DNA of 64,000 nucleotides from Dictyostelium discoideum (GCA_000004695.1 CM000150.2:3776001-3840000); one strand, 5' to 3'; shown: positions 1 through 21,961, counted from the first letter of the stretch. Made by a program: numbers and translations. Notes: generated by a model from the letters alone, not told the origin.

Positions 1-84
<84 letters not shown>

Positions 85-100
85 TAATAATAATAGTAAT
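1..100. repeat. (TAA)n microsatellite; coding (poly-N) in frame 2 of kinase paralog 1
   Basis: About 33 perfect TAA units at the window start, continuous in frame with the downstream kinase exon. Confidence 0.9.
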
Positions 101-474
101 AGTAATAGTACCAATATCAATAACAATTGTAGCAATAACAATAGTAACAATAACCATATTAATTTCAATAGCAATAGTAATATTACCAATATAAAAAATA
201 ATGACAGTAAAATAAAAAATAAAAAAGAAGAAAATAAAGTACCAATTATTGATTTAAACCAGTACGAATATGTTGAATCAATTTCACTTGGAGTTTTCAG
301 TGTTGTTGGGAAATATAAAAGAAAAGGTCAAGAAAATGAATTTATAGCAATAAAAAAAATTGATATTTTATCTCTAAATGAAGAAAAGGTAATTAATACA
401 ATATTAATATTATAGTGAAAAAAAAAAAAAAAAAAAAAAGAAAATTTTTAAATACTAGTAGTTCATTATTTTAA

Positions 475-508
<34 letters not shown>

Positions 509-1740
509 TTTAGATAATTAAAGAAATTAATAAACTTTATTCAATTAATCATCCAAATATAATTAAAATAATTGGATATTGTAAAGATCAAAAAAATTAT
601 TATATTGCAAGTAAATATTATCCAAAAGGGTCAATTAAAAAGAATACAAAACAATCACCATATAGTGAGATGAATGCAAAAAGGATATCGGTCAAAATTT
701 TAAGCGGAATTGATTATTTACATTCATTAAATCCACCAATTATTCATAGAGATATTAAATGTGATAATATATTATTAGATGAAAATGATGATCCAATTTT
801 AATAGATTTTGGATTATCATATAAAACTATTGATGATTCTACCAATTTGAAAACGTTATGTAAAAAACCATTTTGGGCATCACCAGATGTCAATAATCAA
901 GAGATACAAATCTTTAGCGAAAAAACTGATATATATAGTTTTGGTTGTACAATTTTTGAGATGATTGTTGGTTGGGAATCATATTCCAAAAAAGAAAATA
1001 ATCAACCTAATTTACAAAAATTACCAGATAATTTAACTATATCTTGTAGACTCGCATTAGGTGATATTATTGGACTTGAACAAAATTTTAAACCAGATTC
1101 AAAAGATTTACAAAAATTATCTTGGTTTAATGAATCATTACCACCAATTTTTCAATCACAAGAATTAACAAAATCGACAACCAATACCACTACCACTACC
1201 ACTACTACTACTACACCACCACCACCACCATCACCATCATCATCATCACCAAGTATGAATGAAAATAAAAAAATAGTAACATCAGATTGTTTAATTAATA
1301 GTTTCAAAGAAAGTGGTTGTCTAATTTTTCTTAATGGAGAATTGATGTATGATAATCCTTTTGATAAAGATTGTTATCAATATAATATAGTGATACCATT
1401 TGGTACTCCTCACTTAAGGGAAGTGATACATAAAGATAAAAATAAATCTAAACACCTAGACAAGATTGAATTATTTATAGATGACCATTTAGCAAAGGGA
1501 CTTGTTATAAAATTGGGAAATTTTAAATTAGATTTATCAAAAGAGTTTAAAAAAACTCCAACATTCATAGATTCAATTATCGAATATCTTTTAGATTTAT
1601 TGCAAAAAGATAATGATGATGATGATGATGATGATGTTCCCGAATCCATTATTCTCAATATAGCTGTTGGATTTTACAAATACATTTCAAATTTTATCAC
1701 ATACCAATATGTCTTAAATCAACCTTCACATTTTTGTTAA
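1..1740 (+). CDS. SAM-kinase family paralog 1 (5'-partial): protein kinase catalytic domain + conserved ~150-aa C-terminal domain; exons <1..388 and 514..1740 (intron 389..513)
   Basis: Frame 2 is open from base 1: a (TAA)n tract encodes poly-N, then ...IPIIDLNQYEYVESISLGVFSVVGKYKRKGQENEFIAIKK (degenerate Gly-loop + VAIK lysine), ending GAA AAG|gtaatt at 388. The acceptor ...tttag at 513 joins in phase to ORF 670..1740 (IIKEINKLYSINHPNIIK..., HRDIKCDN, DFGLS, DIYSFGCT). The N-terminus, presumably a SAM domain as in the paralogs, lies upstream of the window. Confidence 0.75.
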
Positions 1741-2202: not shown

Positions 2203-4924
<2,722 letters not shown>

Positions 4925-5296: not shown

Positions 5297-7053
5297 ATGG
5301 AAAAGAGTATAGAATCAATTTCTTCCTCTACTTTAAATATTTTAGATAATAAAAATTATAAAAAATGGGATAATGAAACAGTATGCAAATGGCTTTTAAA
5401 TAATATAAAAACAATACAAAAAGTTTCAATTGAAATCTTTCAAGCAAATGAAATCATTGGAAAAGATTTAGAATTTTTAACAGATAAAATATTATTAAAA
5501 ATGGGTGTTGGAATTCGTGATATCTTAAATTTTAAATTTGAATATCAAATTTTAAAAAATTGTTATAATAATAATAATAATAATAACCATATTACTATTA
5601 ATAATTTTAATTATAATTTTAATAATTTCAAAATAAATATAAATAAAGATTTATTAAAAGTTGTTGTAAATGCTCCAATTATTAATATTAATGAATATCA
5701 ATATATTGAAACCATTTCAAAAAATAAATTTTGTGAAATTGAAAAATATAAAAAAAGTCAAACTAAAGTGAATGAATATATAATTATTAAAAAAATTATT
5801 AAAAATTCAACATTGAATGAAGAAAAAGTAAGTCTTTTTAATTTTATTTTTATTTTAATTTATTTTTATATAAATTATTTTTAAAAATAATATTAATTTT
5901 CAAAAAATTATTAATTAATTAGTTAATTAATGAAATTGATACAATTTATTTACTTGATCATCCAAATTTAATTAAAATAATTGGATATTGTAAAGATAAA
6001 AATTATTTTTATATTGGAATGAAATATTATGAAACATTTAAATTTAAACAATCAAATATATCAAAATTTGGTAAAAATTTTGAACAAGTTATTAGAAAGA
6101 TTTCATTTAAAATTTTAAGTGCAATCGATTATTTACATTCATTAGAACCACCAATTATTCATGGAAATATTAATGCAAAGAATATATTATTAGATAATGA
6201 AAATAATGAACCAATTTTAATAGATTTTGGGCTATCATATAAATCAATTGATTTGTTAACAAATCAAAAAACTCAATTCATAAGTCCATGTTTTATTACA
6301 CCAGAATATTTTTATAAAAAAACAAAAAATAAAATTAGTAAAGAAGCTGATATTTTTAGTTTTGGTTCAACAATTTCAAATATGATAAAAGGTGGAACCG
6401 ATTTCAAAGAGGATGAAGAAGGATTTGAAGAATTGAAAAGAACGTTTGCAGGTGTTCTCACTAGTCGTGATAAAGTATCCTTTGATTATAGATCATTATT
6501 CACTGAAATCAATAAAGATGAACCATGTTTTAGACCAAGTTCAAAAGAACTTTTAAAATCATTTTGGTTTGTTGAACCACCTCAACCATCTTTTAAAACT
6601 TCGGAAATTACAACAAATCTTTTAATTTATTATTTAAAAAAATATGGTTGTTATATAATTCGAGATGGTGTAGCTATGGTTTCCCTTAATTTCAATGAAA
6701 ACATTTATTCTACCTCAAGTATTATAGGTTCTGAATTTTCACATCAACCAAAAATAAATGAAAAACATAAATATTTTAAAGAAATTAATCAATTTTATTC
6801 AAAAATCTTATCAGAATCATTTCAAGCAAAAATTGGATGGTATTTATTAAATTTAAACAATGAATTTAAAGATAAACCATATTTTAAAAATATATTTTTA
6901 TCTTTTTCAACTTCTGATAAACTTGAAATCAATTCTGTCGCTGATCTTAATTTAAAATTAACAATTTTTTTTTATAACTCTATTACTATGAGTTTAATTT
7001 ATCAAACAATTTATCAAAAACCTAAAAGTTTTAAAATTGTTGATTATTTATAA
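5297..7053 (+). CDS. SAM-kinase family paralog 3: SAM domain + predicted pseudokinase (HRD->HGN) + conserved C-terminal domain; exons 5297..5827, 5923..7053
   Basis: ORF 5297..5884 has a SAM motif (YKKWDNETVCKWL...IIGKDLEFLTDKILLKMGVGIRDIL) and the N-lobe (YIIIKKIIKNSTLNEEK|gtaagt at 5828). The acceptor ttaattag| is at 5922. LINEIDTIYLLDHPNLIKIIGYCKDK... continues in frame 1 into ORF 6019..7053. The catalytic loop reads IIHGNINAKN instead of HRDxKxxN, while DFG is retained. Confidence 0.7.
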
Positions 7054-7827: not shown

Positions 7828-9196
7828 ATGGAAGGTACGATAATTAATAATTATTATTATAAATTTTTAAAATATAAAATAAAAATAAAATCAATCACCA
7901 CTCGCTTTTTTTTATTTTTTTTATTATTACCTATTATTTTATTTTCCAATTTTTTCTATTCACATAAAGAATAATTGAACAAGTATTATAATAGTAATAA
8001 TAATAATAAATAACTTTATCATTTAAACAACACTCATTATTTTGTTAACAATTAAAAAAAATAATCGTTTTTTTTTTTTTTTTTTTTTTCTCAATTTTTT
8101 TTACCACTTTTTTTTTTTTCAACCGAAATATTATTATTATTATTTATTATTTTTTTAAATTTAATATTAATATGTTTTATTTTAAAAAATTATTATAGGA
8201 AGAGGTGGTTCTAGAGGTGGTGCTATGGCTCGTGGTGGTGGTCGTGGTGGTTTTGGCGGTGGTAGAGGTGGTTTTGGCGGTGGTGATCGTGGTGGCCGTG
8301 GTGGTGGTAGAGGTGGTTTTGGCGGTGGTGATCGTGGTGGTAGAGGAGGTTTTGGCGGTGGTCGTGGTGGTAGAGGTGGTTTTGGCGGTGGTGATCGTGG
8401 TGGTAGAGGTGGTGCCCGTGGTGGTAGAGGTGGTGCTCGTGGTGGTAAACCAGCTGCAGGTGGTAAACCAGGTGCTAAAGTTATTGTTGAAAAACATCCA
8501 AGACACGAAGGTGTATTCATTGTTAGAGGTAAAGAAGAATCATTAGCCACATTAAACTCTGTACCAGGTGAATCAGTTTACGGAGAAAAGAGAGTTTCAG
8601 TTGGTGAAGGCGAAGATAAAAAAGAATACAGAATTTGGAATCCATTCAGATCAAAGATTGCCGCCGGTTTACATCGTGGTGTTGATGAAATTCATATTAA
8701 ACCAGGTAGTAAAGTACTCTACATTGGTGCTGCTTCAGGTACTACCATTTCACATGTTTCAGATATAGTTGGTCCAACCGGTGTTGTCTATGGTATTGAA
8801 TTATCCCATCGTCCAGGTAGAGATTTAATTGGTATGGCCAAAAAGAGAACCAATGTTATCCCAATCATTGAAGATGCTCGTCACCCACAAAAATATAGAA
8901 TGCTCATCGGTATGGTCGATGTTGTATTTGCTGATGTTGCTCAACCAAATCAAGCTCAAATTGTTGCTCAAAACTCTGCTTACTTTTTAAAGAACGAAGG
9001 TCACTTTATCATTTCAATTAAAGCAAGCTGTATCGATTCAACTGCTCCAACTGAAGTTGTTGTACAAAATGAAATCACAAAATTAAAGAAAGAAAAATTA
9101 AGACCACAACATCTTTTAAAAACTTTAGATCCATATGAACGTAATCACTCTTTAGTAATTGGTGTCTATAGAAAATTTGGTTCATCTGAAAAATAA
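7828..9196 (+). CDS. fbl: rRNA 2'-O-methyltransferase fibrillarin (N-terminal GAR domain); predicted exons 7828..7834 (ATGGAAG) and 8199..9196
   Basis: ORF 8225..9196 carries GGRGGFGGG repeats followed by the conserved fibrillarin methyltransferase core ([14 protein letters not shown]...[21 protein letters not shown]-like, [15 protein letters not shown]). Frame 2 stays open upstream to a consensus acceptor ttattatag|GA AGA GGT GGT TCT AGA GGT at 8198/8199. ATG GAA G|gtacga at 7828..7836 supplies a phase-1 first exon, giving [17 protein letters not shown].... The alternative is an unspliced start at M8225. Confidence 0.7.
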
Positions 9197-9576
9197 ATTG
9201 TTTTAAAAAAAAAAAAAAAAAAAAAAACTTGATAATAAAAAAAAAAAAAAAAGATAATAAAAAAAAAAATAAAAAAAAAAAATTTTTAAAAAAAAAATAA
9301 AAAAAAAGATATAATGAGATTTTTTTTTTTTAAAAAGGTGTGGTTTCTAATATTTTTTTTTCCTTTAAAATTGGTGTTTAAGTATGTTCTTTTTTTTTTT
9401 TAATGTATCCATTTTAATTTTAGTTTTTTTGATATTTTATAAAACTATTTTTTTTTTTTCAATAACTTTTCCAAAAACAAAAAAAAAAATAAAAAATGAA
9501 AATAAAATAAAAATAAAATTATCGCTCAAAACATTAAAAATAATAAATCAATATATAATAATTACAATATATAATA

Positions 9577-10992
9577 ATGTTTTTAAATAAATTAATTAAA
9601 AATAAATATAAACAAAATTTCTTTAGTTTTAAAAACTATTGTACAATTAATAATAATAAACCATTAAATGGATTTAAAATTTTAGATTTATCAAGAGTAT
9701 TAGCAGGACCATACGCAACACAAATATTTGGAGATTTAGGAGCACAAGTTATAAAGGTTGAAAATGTTGGTAAAGGTGATGATACAAGACAATATGGACC
9801 ACCATTTTATGTTGATGAACAAGGTAGAAAAGGTAGTGCCTATTTTAGTTGTGCAAATAGAAATAAGAAATCGATTGCATTGGATATTTCAACAAAGGAA
9901 GGTCAAGATATAGTTTATTCATTAGCAAAGGAATCAGATGTTTTCATTGAGAATTTTAAAGTTGGTGGATTAAAAAAGTATTCATTAGATTATGAAACCA
10001 TTAAACAAATTAATCCATCGATTATCTATTGTTCAATCACTGGATTTGGACAAGATGGTGAGTATAGTAAATTACCAGGTTATGATTTTAGTGTTCAAGC
10101 AATGGGTGGTTTAATTTCAATTACAGGTGATAAAGAGAATCCATATAAATGTGGTGTGGCAATTGTTGATATGATGACAGGACTCTATGCAAATATTGCC
10201 ATTCAAGCTGCACTTCATCATAGAGAGAAATCCAAAGATAAAAAAGGTCAATATATAGATGTTAGTCTATTGGATGTTCAAGCTTCTTTCTTGGCAAATC
10301 ATGGTTCAAGTTATTTAGTAACTGGTGAAACCTCTGAACGTGTTGGTAATTCTCATCCAAGTATTTCACCTTATGATTCTTTAAAAACTAAAGATGGTTT
10401 CATGGTAGTTGCAATTGGTAATAATACTCAATTTCAATCAATGTGTAATGTTTTAGGTTTACCTCATTTATCAACTAATCCTTTATTCTCTACAAATCCA
10501 TCAAGAGTTTTAAATCGTAAACAATTACTTTCAATTCTAACAAATGAAACTTTAAAATTTAATACTGATGATATTGTTAAATTATTAGGTGATTCAAATG
10601 TACCTTGTTCACCAATTAATTCAATTGATAAAGTTGTAAATCATAAACAAATTAAACATAGAAATATGATTTGGAATTTACCTTTAAATGAAAATAATAA
10701 TAATAATTTAAATAATAATAATTTAAATAATAATAATAGTAATAATAATTTAAATAATAATAATAATAATAATAAAAATATTCAAAATGATAAAGGTGAA
10801 TATATAATGAATTCAATTAATTTAATTGGTAATCCAATTCATTTTAGTGAAACAAATATTCATACACCTTCAAGTATAAAAAGTAATATTCCACCACCTT
10901 TTTTAGGTCAACATACTGATGAAATTTTAAAAAATATTGGTTTAAATGAAAATCAAATTTTAAATTTAAAAAATAATAATATTGTTCAATAA
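9577..10992 (+). CDS. CoA-transferase family III (CaiB/BaiF-type; SUGCT/AMACR-like) protein with N-terminal presequence and internal poly-N insert
   Basis: A single 471-aa ORF. Family-III CoA-transferase motifs are present: [55 protein letters not shown]. Confidence 0.8.
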
Positions 10993-11681
10993 TTTATAAA
11001 ATATTTAATAATATTTATTTATTTTTTAATTTTTTTAATATTCATGTAAATAATAAATATTTGGGTAGTGTAATAAAAAATTTAATTAAACATAGAATAA
11101 TATAATTTATTTATTTATTATTGTTTTTTTTTTTTTTGTTTAAAAAAAAAAATAAAAAAAAAATAAAAAAAAAAAAATAATAATAATAATAAAGATATGA
11201 TGAGTGATTGCTAAATGATTAAATTTTATTTACAAGGTATTCATATAAAAGAAAAAAAAAAAATAAAAAAATAAAAAATAAAAGAAATAAAAAAAGAAAA
11301 AAAAATCATCTTGTTTCTCCTCAATTGTTAATATAGAGAGGTAAAAACAGTTGTATAGCGATTACAAAATTAAGTGACGACAACAATTTTTTTACAAATA
11401 ATAATTATAATTAAAATGCTATTGATAAAGATAAAATTTTTTTTTTTTAACACACAAAAAATAGCAACAACACACAAATAATTTTTTAATTGTATTTTTA
11501 TTTTTTTTTTGCAATATTAAAAAAAAAAAAAATAATAATAAAAAAAAAAAAAAATAGATTTAAAAATTTAATATAAATTAATTTTTTTTTTCATTTTCAA
11601 TATCATTATTTACATTAAAAAATAAATTAATAAAGTTTTATTAAAAAAAAAAAAAAAAAAAAAGTAAAATTAAAATTTAAA

Positions 11682-12230
11682 ATGGAATTATTAGTTGGTG
11701 GTACAATTTTAGGTGCATTAACATATGCATATAGTTCATTAAAAAGAACTATTCCAGAAGGTGCTCATGCATGTTCACCATTTTATCCAGAGAAATATGT
11801 TGGAAAATGGTATGAAATCGCTCGTTTAGATTTTTATTATGAAAGAGATATGAATAATGTTAGTGCAGAGTATACATTAAATAAAGATGGTACAATTAGT
11901 GTTATTAATAGTGGTTATAATTATGTTGAAAAGAAGAGAGAATCAGTAAATGGAAAGGCTTTATTTGTACATGGTTCAGATGAAGCAATGTTAAAAGTTT
12001 CCTTTTTTGGTCCATTTTATGCTGGTTACAATGTTATTGCAATTGATCCTGATTATAAATATGCATTGGTTGCCGGTAGAAGTTTAGATTATTTATGGAT
12101 ACTCTCAAGAGAAACTTCAATTCCAGATCATATTAAAAAACAATATTTAGAATTAGCTGAATCAATTGGTTATAATACTTCAAAATTAATTTGGACTGAA
12201 CATGATAATATTAATAATAAAAAGGATTAA
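11682..12230 (+). CDS. bacterial-type lipocalin (Blc/ApoD-like)
   Basis: A 182-aa ORF with the lipocalin SCR1 motif GKWYEIARL and the Blc-like following strand pattern (ISVINSGYN...GKA...VSFFGPFYAGYNVIAIDPDYKYALVAGRSLDYLWILSR). Confidence 0.75.
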   Translation: MELLVGGTILGALTYAYSSLKRTIPEGAHACSPFYPEKYVGKWYEIARLDFYYERDMNNVSAEYTLNKDGTISVINSGYNYVEKKRESVNGKALFVHGSDEAMLKVSFFGPFYAGYNVIAIDPDYKYALVAGRSLDYLWILSRETSIPDHIKKQYLELAESIGYNTSKLIWTEHDNINNKKD

Positions 12231-16496: not shown

Positions 16497-16819
16497 ATTA
16501 TTATTATTATTACTATTATTTAATTCAACTTCATTCTTTTTATAATTTGTTGAATCTGTTTTAATTCTCTTATTACTATTATGATGATTGCTGACAAAAT
16601 TATTATTTTTTAATTTTTTAAAAAGATTTTTAAAGGATAAACAATCATTAATCCAATTTGTAATAATATTGCGTTGTCGATAAATTCCAAATGATCACCT
16701 GTGATTTTATTTTGATTAAACTTTTCAATAATAGCTATACTGAAATTATTATTAGAAAGCCATTTACAAACAGAGTCAATGTCCCATTCTTCATAATTTT
16801 CACATAACACAAATGACAT
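15042..16819 (-). CDS. SAM-kinase family paralog 4 (minus strand): SAM domain + protein kinase + conserved C-terminal domain; exons ~16197..16819 and 15042..16118; apparent -1 frameshift between SAM and linker (possible pseudogene or sequence error)
   Basis: ORF 16610..16819(-) is a SAM domain (EEWDIDSVCKWLSNNNFSIAIIEKFNQNKITGDHLEFIDNAILLQIG). A second frame continues through the homologous ...DCLSFKNLFKKLKNNN... linker, poly-N and MAIK...IGRGSFSTVGKYRDKAKPNEFIAIKKINVSVLKEEK|gtaag (ORF 16182..16403). The acceptor atatag| sits before ATTGTAAATGAAATCAATATTCTTTATTCAATAAATCACCC at 16118, joining ORF 15042..15950 (HRDIKGGN, DFGLSYK, CTD ending ...ILVYQTIIYRPERFKII*). Confidence 0.6.
16438..16530. 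repeat. (ATT)n tract (poly-N coding on minus strand) in linker of kinase paralog 4
   Basis: An ATT trinucleotide run with two single-unit interruptions. It stays in phase with MAIK... downstream. Confidence 0.85.
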
Positions 16820-18723: not shown

Positions 18724-19203
18724 ATTATATAATTGTTAATCATTGAGCACATATAGAAAAAATAAAAATAAAAATAAAAATAAAAATAAAAATAAAAATA
18801 AAAAAAATTATTTATCTAGTTTATTTTTTATTTTTTAATTTTTTAATTTTTTTTCTTTTTTTTTTTTTTTTTAAAAACTTTAAAGGCATTAAAAATCTGA
18901 GGTTACCTGTTAATAGATTCACATTTTGGTGCCAGACCAGCAATATTTAATTTAATTTTTTTAATTTAAATTTTTTTTTTTTATTTTATTTTTTTTTTTT
19001 TTTTTTATTTATTTTTTTTTTCACGAGAAAAAAAAAAAAAAAAAAAAATTAAAAATAAAAAATTAAATTGTTTTTTTTTTTCCAACACACACACATAACC
19101 AATCATACTATTGTTATAATATCTTTTTTTTTTTTTATAGTTCTATAAATAAACACACACATATAATTTTAAATTCTTTTTATAAACATATATTTTTAAA
19201 AAC

Positions 19204-20160
19204 ATGGTAGATACATCAAATCTTTTACCACAAACACCAAGACTTTTAAAAGTCCCATTAATTATTTTAAATATTATCCTTTGGGTATGTATTTTAATTT
19301 TTTTTTTTTTTTTTTTTTAAAACAAAAACTAAAAATAAAAAAAAAAAAAAAGATAATTGCAATATTAAAAAATAAATAAATAAATAAAAAAAATAAAATA
19401 AAAAAATATATTTTAATTAATAATATCTTAAAAAAAAAAAAAAAAAAATCTTTAGATTCTTGGTTTAGTTTTAGTTATTGTTGGTGGTATTTGTGTTAGC
19501 TTTTTATCAAATTTCAAAGATTTCACAAAAGCCAGTGATGCTAAATCAGCTCTTTCAAATCTTACAACCAGTATTCCAGCTGGTGTTTTAGTTATTGGTA
19601 TCCTCTTTGTAATTTTCACTGTTGTTGGTTGTTTCGTTGCGTAAGTATACCAATAATAATAAATTATTATTATTATTATTATTATTTATTTTTATTAACA
19701 TTTTATAAAATAATATAGTTACAAAGAGAAATTAGTTGGTTTAGTAATCTATTGTGCAGTAATGTTAATTTTATTAGTTATTTTAATTGGTGTTGGTGGT
19801 AAAGCTATAACATTACACAATGATGATATCATTAATGAAGTTGGTGGTGCTTGGGAACATGTTGCCAATGGTACAAAGAATAGCACCCTCACTCGTCTCG
19901 AAAATTTCTTAAAATGTTGTAAATGGTCAAACGTCTCAATAGACTCTTCAGATTTATGTCCAAAAGATGGTGATAAAATTAAATATGAAGGTCACTATTG
20001 TGGTGAAGCTTTAAGTGACCAATTCAGTTCAAAAATCTATGCTGTTGGTGCTGCTGGTTTAGCCATTGGTATCATTGAACTCGTTGCCATCCTTTTCTCA
20101 TTATTCTTAATTATTCGTATTTGTCGTTCACCAAGAACTCGTTCATATGATCAATATTAA
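19204..20160 (+). CDS. tetraspanin paralog 2; exons 19204..19284, 19456..19640, 19719..20160
   Basis: MVDTSNLLPQTPRLLKVPLIILNIILW|gtatgt; tttag|ILGLVLVIVGGICVSF...VGCFVA with donor GC|gtaagt at 19641; aatatag|T joins in phase to YKEKLVGLVIYCAVMLILLVILIGVGGK... (ORF 19762..20160 with KCCKW and CPKD motifs, TM4 and the ...RICRSPRTRSYDQY* tail). Confidence 0.75.
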
Positions 20161-20606
20161 ATAAATAAATAAAACAAAATAAATAAATAATAGTAATAAA
20201 ATCAAAAATTTAAAAATATCAACAAAATTAATTTTTTTTTTTTTTTTTTTTTCTAAAAATAGAAAAAAATAAATAAATAAAAAATTTAAAAAAATAAAAA
20301 AAAAATACAAATATGCATCAAAACTGTTTAATTCTCTTTTTTTTTTTTTTTTTATTTATTTTTTATGAGAACCAAAACCTTGTTTTTTGATTTTTTTTTT
20401 TTCAGCCTGTGGTTTCGATTTCTTTAAATAAACGTTTATTTTTTTTAATTTTTTTTTTTTTTTTTTTTAATTTTTTTTATTTTTTAATTTTTTTTTTTTA
20501 TTCACACTGTTTTTTTACATGTGAAACTATTGACCACAAATATTTAAAAAAAAAAAAAAAAAAATTAAAAACTATAATAAAATTGTAATATATATATAAA
20601 TAAAAT

Positions 20607-20891
20607 ATGGTAGAATATCTTCCTTCAACTCCACGTTATTTAAAAGGTATGATTATTATTATTTTATTTTTTTTGATTGTTTTTTTAATTGATTGTTTTT
20701 TTTTTTTTTTTTTTTTTTTTTAATCACCTTTTTCTATTTTATTCTACTAATTTAAGAAAAATTTTATAATTTACTAATTTATTCCAATTTATATATATAT
20801 GTATATATAAAGTTCCATTAATAATATTAAATGTCATTCTTTGGGTAAAGTTTTTCCTGTTTTTTTAACACCATCATACCAGGGGCAAAAA

Positions 20892-20930
<39 letters not shown>

Positions 20931-21645
20931 TTAAAGATTTTAATTTATGAATATAATAATAAATTTTATTATTATTAATTATTAATTATAAATTATTATT
21001 ATTATTATTATTATTATTATTTAGTTATTAGGATTAGTACTTGTTATTATTGGTGGAATTTGTGTTGGATTTTTTTCAAGATTTAAAGAGTTACAAGAAG
21101 TAGGAGGAGTTTCAGAATCAATAAAGAGTATATCGGTATCATTACCAGCTGGTGTATTAAGTATTGGTATATTCTTTATGGTATTAACAGTAGCAGGATG
21201 TATCGTAGCTTATAAAGAGAAAATGGTAGGATTGGTATTCTACACAATATTGATGTTGGTTTTATTAGTTGTTTTAATTGGTATTGGTGGTGAAGCATTA
21301 ACTTACCATAATGCTGATATCGGTATTGAAATCGAAGATAATTGGAAAAACATCTCATATTCAAATCAAAGTGTTGTAATTAAAAAATTGGAACAATTCT
21401 TTGAATGTTGTTGTTTTGATGAAAGTGATCTAAAATTAAATTGTACTGCATTATGTCCACAAGATGATCAAAAAAATATATTATATAATGGTACTTTTTG
21501 TTATGATGTAATATTTGGTGCTGTAAATTCGAAATTGTATTTAGTTGGTAGTGCTGGTGTTGCAATTGGTGTGATTGAATTGGTTTCATTAATGTTTGCT
21601 TTATTTTTAATTGTTAGATTATATAAATCAAATTCTTATAGATAA
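20607..21645 (+). CDS. tetraspanin paralog 3; exons 20607..20646, 20813..20844, 21025..21645
   Basis: ATG GTA GAA TAT CTT CCT TCA ACT CCA CGT TAT TTA AAA G|gtatga; ag|TT CCA TTA ATA ATA TTA AAT GTC ATT CTT TGG|gtaaag; ttatttag|TTA TTA GGA TTA GTA CTT GTT ATT ATT GGT GGA... continues into ORF 21178..21645 (ECCCF and CPQDD motifs, TM4). Confidence 0.7.
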
Positions 21646-21961
21646 TAATAAATAATAAATAAAATAATAATAATAAATAAAATAATAAATAATAATAAAT
21701 AACAATTAATTAAAAATATTAAATAAAAATAAAATATTCATAATTTGAATATTTCTTTTTTTTTTTTTCACCCCCTCCCCTAAACTCTTAAAATTTCATA
21801 TGTTTTTCTCATAATTTTTTTTTTTTATTTTTTTTATTTTTTTTATTGATAATTTTCATTTTTTTTTTTTTTTTTTTCTTTTTATTTTCATCATTTTTTT
21901 AGTATTTTAAAAAACAAATAATAATAATAATAATAATATATAAATAATAGAAAAAAAAAAA

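Follow-up and report, generated by a model that had tools for sequence, protein, structure and literature searches.

The SAMK gene samkD of Dictyostelium discoideum encodes a predicted pseudokinase with an ancient HGN catalytic loop

The SAMK gene samkD of Dictyostelium discoideum carries HGN in place of the HRD motif of its catalytic loop, and its product is classed as a pseudokinase by the standard sequence definition, that is, the loss of any of the residues equivalent to K72, D166 or D184 of PKA. We analyzed a 64,000-nucleotide stretch of D. discoideum DNA, referred to below as the window, in which the triplet CAT GGA AAT (H257, G258, and N259) occupies positions 6160..6168, in frame in exon 2 of samkD. 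The loop is ancient, to judge from orthologues in related genomes, and the reading frame around it has been held by selection under a weak constraint. We think it probable that the selected function of samkD is noncatalytic and exerted through its SAM domain, by a protein that combines a kinase fold lacking the general base with a weakly kept frame.

The gene at 5297-7053 is samkD, the third member of the chromosome 1 tandem array samkA-samkC-samkD. Its spliced product is residue-for-residue identical to XP_646370.1/EAL72690.1 (DDB_G0270680, D. discoideum AX4) and is the protein of UniRef100_Q55CW1, entered in UniProt (Q55CW1) as “Probable inactive serine/threonine-protein kinase samkD.” Goldberg et al. 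(2006, PLoS Genet 2:e38, PMC1420674) described the SAMKs as a Dictyostelium-specific family of the “Other” group, with a relationship to the STE group, and entered samkD as SAMK-D in their Table S2 and in their tree. Table S2 gives the motifs of samkD as IIIK / HGNINAKN / DFG, with the predicted activity “i” and the remark “lacks D166.” It lists samkA (DDB0231307) as IAIK / HRDIKCDN / DFG, scored “aq” (active, qualified) and lacking G52; samkC (DDB0229990) as ILIK / HRDINSDN / DFG, also scored “aq”; and samkB_ps (DDB0229999p) as IAIK / HRDIKGGN / DFG, labelled “pseudogene.” An earlier note on this DNA had proposed, from the sequence, that the third kinase paralog is a pseudokinase that has changed HRD to HGN. 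Given the identity with Q55CW1 and the score of 2006, this was already known: the proposal is a correct rediscovery of a published annotation rather than a new finding, and as stated it adds nothing to a record in which samkD has been predicted inactive since 2006 and is so labelled in UniProt. Indeed, the samkD described here and the published one agree in protein sequence, motif call, and inactive prediction, without any difference. Our additions to that record consist solely of orthologue, selection, and loop-convergence data. A literature search by gene name and gene IDs returned nothing on samkD function, with no biochemical, expression, or genetic data found.

Lying on the plus strand, samkD comprises exon 1 (5297-5827), a 95-nt GT..AG intron (5828-5922), and exon 2 (5923-7053, stop codon included). 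The G+C content of the window, about 20%, and its short GT..AG introns are typical of Dictyostelium. The coding frame is clean (553 codons and a canonical intron, with no frameshift or stop), and on this count samkD is not a pseudogene. The N-terminal SAM domain (about residues 22 to 90; 5360..5566) corresponds to Pfam SAM_2, reaching 24.3 bits against a cutoff of 20.5 when residues 1 to 90 are scanned alone. The kinase domain matches Pfam PF00069 (Pkinase) with 105.3 bits (cutoff, 31.7) over profile positions 16 to 263 of 263, spanning both lobes, and all four SAMK products in the window match the same family (145, 111, 105, and 183 bits, 105 being samkD). Residues 400 to 553 (6589..7050) form a SAMK-specific C-terminal α/β domain of about 150 amino acids that is common to SAMKs; a profile of this domain matched only SAMK-like proteins. 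One protein from the representative search, P0038 (281 amino acids), has a samkD-like C-terminal domain (..AFWFTQPPSFKT..INEKHK..VKIGWYILNINKEF..) without a kinase domain upstream; it could be a SAMK in truncated form or an error of gene calling.

The affiliation of samkD with the SAMKs is shown by its N-terminal SAM domain, a kinase domain that clusters with the paralogs (41 to 46% identity to them), the C-terminal domain, and the phase-0 intron after ..NEEK, which sits at the same codon in samkA, samkC, samkD, and samkB_ps. The SAM domain is its best-conserved module among the paralogs, with 65 to 69% identity to samkA and samkC, compared to 46 to 50% for the kinase domain and 27 to 29% for the C-terminal domain among the SAMK paralogs. 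The AlphaFold model of samkD has a normal bilobal kinase core (pLDDT, 75 to 95), with TM scores of about 0.8 to the kinase domains of Aurora, ASK1, and CDK2. Foldseek neighbors of the full model (MARK, SIK, ASK1, Aurora, and CDK2) were generic kinases only, with no affinity to any pseudokinase family, and the nearest solved sequences are those of the CDPK, MARK, and Snf1 Ser/Thr kinases.

Within the catalytic loop, HGNINAKN (6160..6183), both the Arg and the catalytic-base Asp (PKA D166) of HRD are gone. Of the 33 kinases in our alignment, at least 90% have Asp in the column of N259. N264, the N171 equivalent (6181-6183), is kept, and the loop Lys has shifted from the K168 position to K263, the residue just before N264. 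The β3 Lys (K165, the K of IIIK; 5789..5791) and the DFG motif (D278, F279, and G280; GAT TTT GGG at 6223..6231) are retained in invariant columns, as the earlier note had stated, and so is the αC Glu (E181; 5932..5934). K165, E181, N264, D278-F-G, and D320 do not vary in alignments that span the SAMK paralogs, their orthologues, and 27 distant kinases. Since the equivalents of K72 and D184 (K165 and D278) are present, D166 by itself decides the assignment to the pseudokinase class. The Gly-rich loop is degenerate as well: the alignments place it at S141-K-N143-K-F-C146 (5717..5734), where there are zero glycines and N143 occupies the G52-equivalent column. The orthologue of Dictyostelium dimigraforme still has a glycine here (ISEGKFS), which suggests that the Gly-rich loop was eroded stepwise, after the HGN change. 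The lack of any glycine in the D. discoideum loop means that nucleotide binding may also be gone.

Could the HGN codons be a sequencing or assembly artifact of the reference? The CAT GGA AAT codons recur in three independent Logan genomic contigs, which were seen in six SRA runs and match the window with 99.2% identity. HGN is also found in three other genome assemblies, and the protein published in 2006 has the same motif. With nothing found in its support, the artifact reading is refuted by the contigs and the other assemblies, and its probability is negligible. The Logan contigs were also examined for a spliced samkD junction as evidence of expression; all of them retain the intron and are therefore genomic and silent on transcription.

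A homologue search found four close relatives, three of which gave syntenic loci: two D. cf. discoideum assemblies (L001 and L006) and D. dimigraforme (L002). Each of these loci contains, in this order, samkA-like, samkC-like, and samkD-like genes, fibrillarin, CoA-transferase, lipocalin, and tetraspanin. The samkD orthologues read HGNINEKN in L001, HGNINARN in L006, and HGNIIGQN in D. dimigraforme, and the codons CAT GGA AAT are the same in L001 and D. dimigraforme. The protein identity of samkD to its D. dimigraforme orthologue is 54%. The presence of HGN in all three orthologues places the loss of D166 before the split from D. dimigraforme.

Scanning the whole window in six frames for the motif turned up four catalytic loops of one family: HRDIKCDN at 745, HRDINSDN at 3191, HGNINAKN at 6160, and, on the minus strand, HRDIKGGN at 15887-15864. 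All four loops quoted by the earlier note are thus correct, as is its remark that the second paralog, samkC, has an atypical HRDxN instead of HRDxK. The first, samkA (HRDIKCDN, plus strand), is cut at its 5′ end by the window start and covers 1..1740 (an exon to 388, an intron at 389-513, and an exon at 514-1740); its L001 orthologue has the loop HRDIHCDN. The second, samkC (2203..4924, plus strand; exons 2203-2865 and 2960-4924, intron 2866-2959), encodes 875 amino acids. In its exon 2, a long, repetitive, P/Q/S/K-rich linker (3650-4450) separates the kinase and C-terminal domains, with repeats of the type ...SQSKPKPSSSLSS.EPPPLEPQP... and polyQ, polyT, and polyN tracts; the length and sequence of this linker vary greatly among orthologues. 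The fourth, samkB_ps (DDB_G0270988; 15042..16819, minus strand; HRDIKGGN), has a frameshift near 16650; its linker and kinase domain do not share the frame of the SAM domain (ATG at 16819). The earlier note had set samkD beside active tandem paralogs. Tandem arrangement on the same (plus) strand holds for samkA and samkC, but these are only scored “aq”; the fourth copy is on the minus strand and neither tandem nor active.

About 8 kb lie between samkD and samkB_ps, which is on the opposite strand, with fibrillarin, CoA-transferase, lipocalin, and tetraspanin genes in between. This order agrees with a figure legend of the tspC paper, which places “pseudogene samkB, DDB_G0270988” beside tspC and the lipocalin DDB_G0269882. 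The window does not include the true samkB, whose loop is HRDIKGDN. In L001, the orthologue of samkB_ps (about 20438-21763, minus strand) looks intact in the captured part, the locus ending before the SAM-encoding 5′ end; in L006 (20217-21155), it is N-terminally truncated. L006 also has a gene of the Phage_integrase (tyrosine recombinase) type at 18729-19928 (minus strand), between the tetraspanin gene and the truncated samkB_ps orthologue and about 0.3 kb from the latter; neither that interval in L001 and L002 nor the first 17 kb of the window contains this gene. It may represent the insertion of a DIRS-like element that is linked to the truncation.

For the selection analysis, three genes downstream of samkD served as calibration: fibrillarin with its N-terminal GAR repeat (8225-9196), a CoA-transferase family III gene (9577-10992), and a lipocalin (11682-12230), whose order (8225-12230) is kept in all three related genomes. 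These adjacent housekeeping genes have omega values of 0 to 0.33, and the dN of the SAMK genes is 5 to 20 times higher. The whole-gene NG86 omega of samkD against two orthologues is 0.70 (P = 0.04) and 0.68 (P = 0.0016), with the proviso that NG86 estimates are crude in an 80% AT genome. All nine exonic indels between the window and L001 samkD are multiples of 3. In a neutral simulation, the observed number and spectrum of substitutions were placed at random on the AX4 coding sequence in 2,000 runs; the mean number of stop codons was 11.7 at the L001 divergence and 25.1 at the L002 divergence, and none of the 2,000 runs was stop free. The reading frame of samkD has thus been held by selection in at least three lineages, under a weak constraint.

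By module, identity to the two orthologues is 96% and 88% for the SAM domain, 81% and 59% for the kinase domain, and 77% and 39% for the C-terminal domain. Between the window and D. dimigraforme, the kinase-domain omega is 0.62 for samkD, 0.40 for samkA, and 0.35 for samkC; the dead kinase domain of samkD is relaxed but not neutral. Whole-exon NG86 omega values do not set samkD apart from samkA and samkC, with samkA reaching 1.5 against L001. The samkA kinase domain (window 514-1740 versus L001 5492-6682) has an NG86 dN/dS of 1.6, but this excess over 1 is not significant (Fisher P = 0.25), and we therefore make no claim of positive selection.

The L006 orthologue of samkD (GCA_054859205, 10001-11660) tells a different story from the open frames, with indels of -10, -70, -4, and +1 nt relative to window positions 5381, 5966, 6395, and 6846, respectively. 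L006 is the closest relative, and no break in frame affects samkA, fibrillarin, or CoA-transferase at this locus. We considered homopolymer errors in long reads as the source of these frameshifts and rejected them, given the 10-nt and 70-nt deletions and the neighbors in frame. With the four frameshifting indels, samkD has therefore been lost as a gene in that lineage, and together with the nearly neutral omega of about 0.7, these indels indicate that its function is dispensable in at least one lineage. Such data are what one would expect if samkD were a functionless duplicate nearing loss, in which decay had begun with HGN and the frame of AX4 was open for the time being. The omega of about 0.7 to 0.9 in several domain comparisons and the birth and death of genes in the cluster (samkB_ps, and the HRN, NFR, or in-frame stop found in samkC orthologues) fit this reading too. 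However, the open reading frame is intact in AX4, a second D. discoideum strain, L001, and L002 despite a dS of about 0.5; the absence of stop-free neutral runs, the in-frame indels, the 88 to 96% conservation of the SAM domain, and the whole-gene omega significantly below 1 likewise count against it. We regard it as distinctly improbable.

We favor a selected, noncatalytic role. With the general base missing, phosphotransfer by samkD would be inefficient. Nevertheless, it seems likely that the protein can still bind a nucleotide and a single cation in the manner of HER3 and the JAK JH2 domains, since the equivalents of K72, E91, N171, and D184 and a loop resembling that of JAK2 JH2 (HGNxxAKN) are kept. 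Its SAM domain would pair with those of samkA, samkC, or samkB; judged from conservation, SAM-SAM association among the SAMKs is most probable. The dead kinase domain could then act as an allosteric partner, a scaffold, or a competitor of samkA, samkC, or samkB.

Alternatively, samkD may be a low-activity or atypical kinase, in which N259 or a neighboring residue supports slow phosphotransfer and K263 takes the role of K168. All of the other catalytic residues (K165, E181, N264, and DFG) are kept in all intact orthologues, and the loop hardly differs from that of JAK2 JH2, a domain that, like HER3, has been reported in a review to have residual activity (autophosphorylation). Moreover, a study of the WNG family (PMC6442604) describes kinases without a Gly-rich loop that can be active. 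Against this stand the absent general base, the Gly-rich loop without a glycine, and the faster evolution of the samkD kinase domain relative to those of samkA and samkC. At K263 itself, L006 has Arg, and D. dimigraforme, with Gln (HGNIIGQN), has not kept the Lys. A residual catalytic role is thus unlikely, and the noncatalytic, SAM-mediated one is the reading that we retain.

The sister genes raise a broader idea. The positional orthologue of samkC in D. dimigraforme (L002 7929-7937) reads HRN (CAC AGG AAT), the one in L001 (about 8130-8138) has changed DFG to NFR (AAT TTC AGA), and the P/Q-rich linker of the one in L006 (about 8950) is interrupted by an in-frame stop. Since samkC orthologues have independently lost D166 or the Asp of DFG, the loss of catalysis is recurrent in the SAMK family: D166 was lost in the ancestor of samkD and, separately, in the samkC of D. 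dimigraforme, L001 samkC has lost the Asp of DFG, and other copies are pseudogenes. A tentative possibility is that samkA-samkC-samkD(-samkB_ps) is a fast birth-and-death family that repeatedly abandons catalysis while keeping the SAM domain, with a role in SAM-mediated assembly or as a decoy, an evolution like that of ROP5, and a convergent, JAK-JH2-like loop as a solution for holding nucleotide. If so, the selected role of SAMKs would be SAM assembly or decoy rather than phosphorylation, and their near-neutral-to-positive evolution would resemble that of conflict-driven arrays. This suggested birth and death with repeated loss of catalysis is a hypothesis and the sole part of our work that goes beyond the literature.

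The newer Dictyostelium genomes thus add modest value, in revealing an ancient dead loop in a gene that is kept in most lineages yet dispensable in one; the independent catalytic losses of the sister genes and the convergence on the JAK2 JH2 solution add further to it. Moreover, samkD offers a cheap and genetically tractable case for the role of a SAM-tethered predicted pseudokinase beside paralogs predicted to be active, with qualification.

Among known systems, the yeast MAPKKK Ste11 and its adaptor Ste50 reportedly use SAM heterodimerization to bring a noncatalytic partner to a kinase. Like the SAMKs, Ste11 has an N-terminal SAM domain on an STE-related kinase, whereas Ste50 has no kinase domain and the SAMKs additionally carry an orphan C-terminal domain. 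The ROP5 genes of Toxoplasma are tandemly duplicated, fast-evolving genes of the kinase fold that have lost catalytic residues, the dead copies regulating active relatives. ROP5 proteins, which a review mentions, are however secreted virulence factors with a ROPK-specific extension of the fold, and nothing ties the SAMKs to host-pathogen conflict.

HER3 (ERBB3) and the JAK JH2 domains both have Asn at the D166 position and, according to the review, are nonetheless able to bind ATP and a single cation by way of N171 and D184. HER3 resembles samkD in the replacement of Asp166 by Asn and in keeping N171 and D184; it is described in the review as binding ATP with one cation and activating catalytically competent family members allosterically. 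Yet HER3 is a receptor tyrosine kinase without E91 that dimerizes via its kinase domains, whereas samkD has retained E181, and its recruitment would occur via the SAM domain. The closest likeness in the loop is to JAK2 JH2: the samkD sequence IIHGNINAKNILL (window 6154-6192) and LIHGNVCAKNILL of JAK2 JH2, checked against PDB sequences, are identical at 10 of 13 positions. Both have Asn for D166, Gly for the Arg, and a Lys directly before N171 replacing K168, and in JAK2 JH2, this Lys takes the part of K168, according to the review. Beyond the loop, JAK2 JH2 has DPG and keeps G50 and G52, whereas samkD has DFG and no glycine in the Gly-rich loop. JAK2 JH2 belongs to the tyrosine kinase group and acts in cis on the JH1 domain of the same polypeptide; the nearest relatives of samkD are Ser/Thr kinases, and its SAM-kinase-C-terminal domain architecture, as opposed to FERM-SH2-JH2-JH1, places it outside the JAK JH2 family. 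Since the paralogs of samkD read HRDIKxDN and its nearest relatives are Ser/Thr kinases, the likeness is convergent and not homologous: the samkD loop has converged on that of JAK2 JH2, a domain that regulates an active kinase noncatalytically, as we propose here for samkD.
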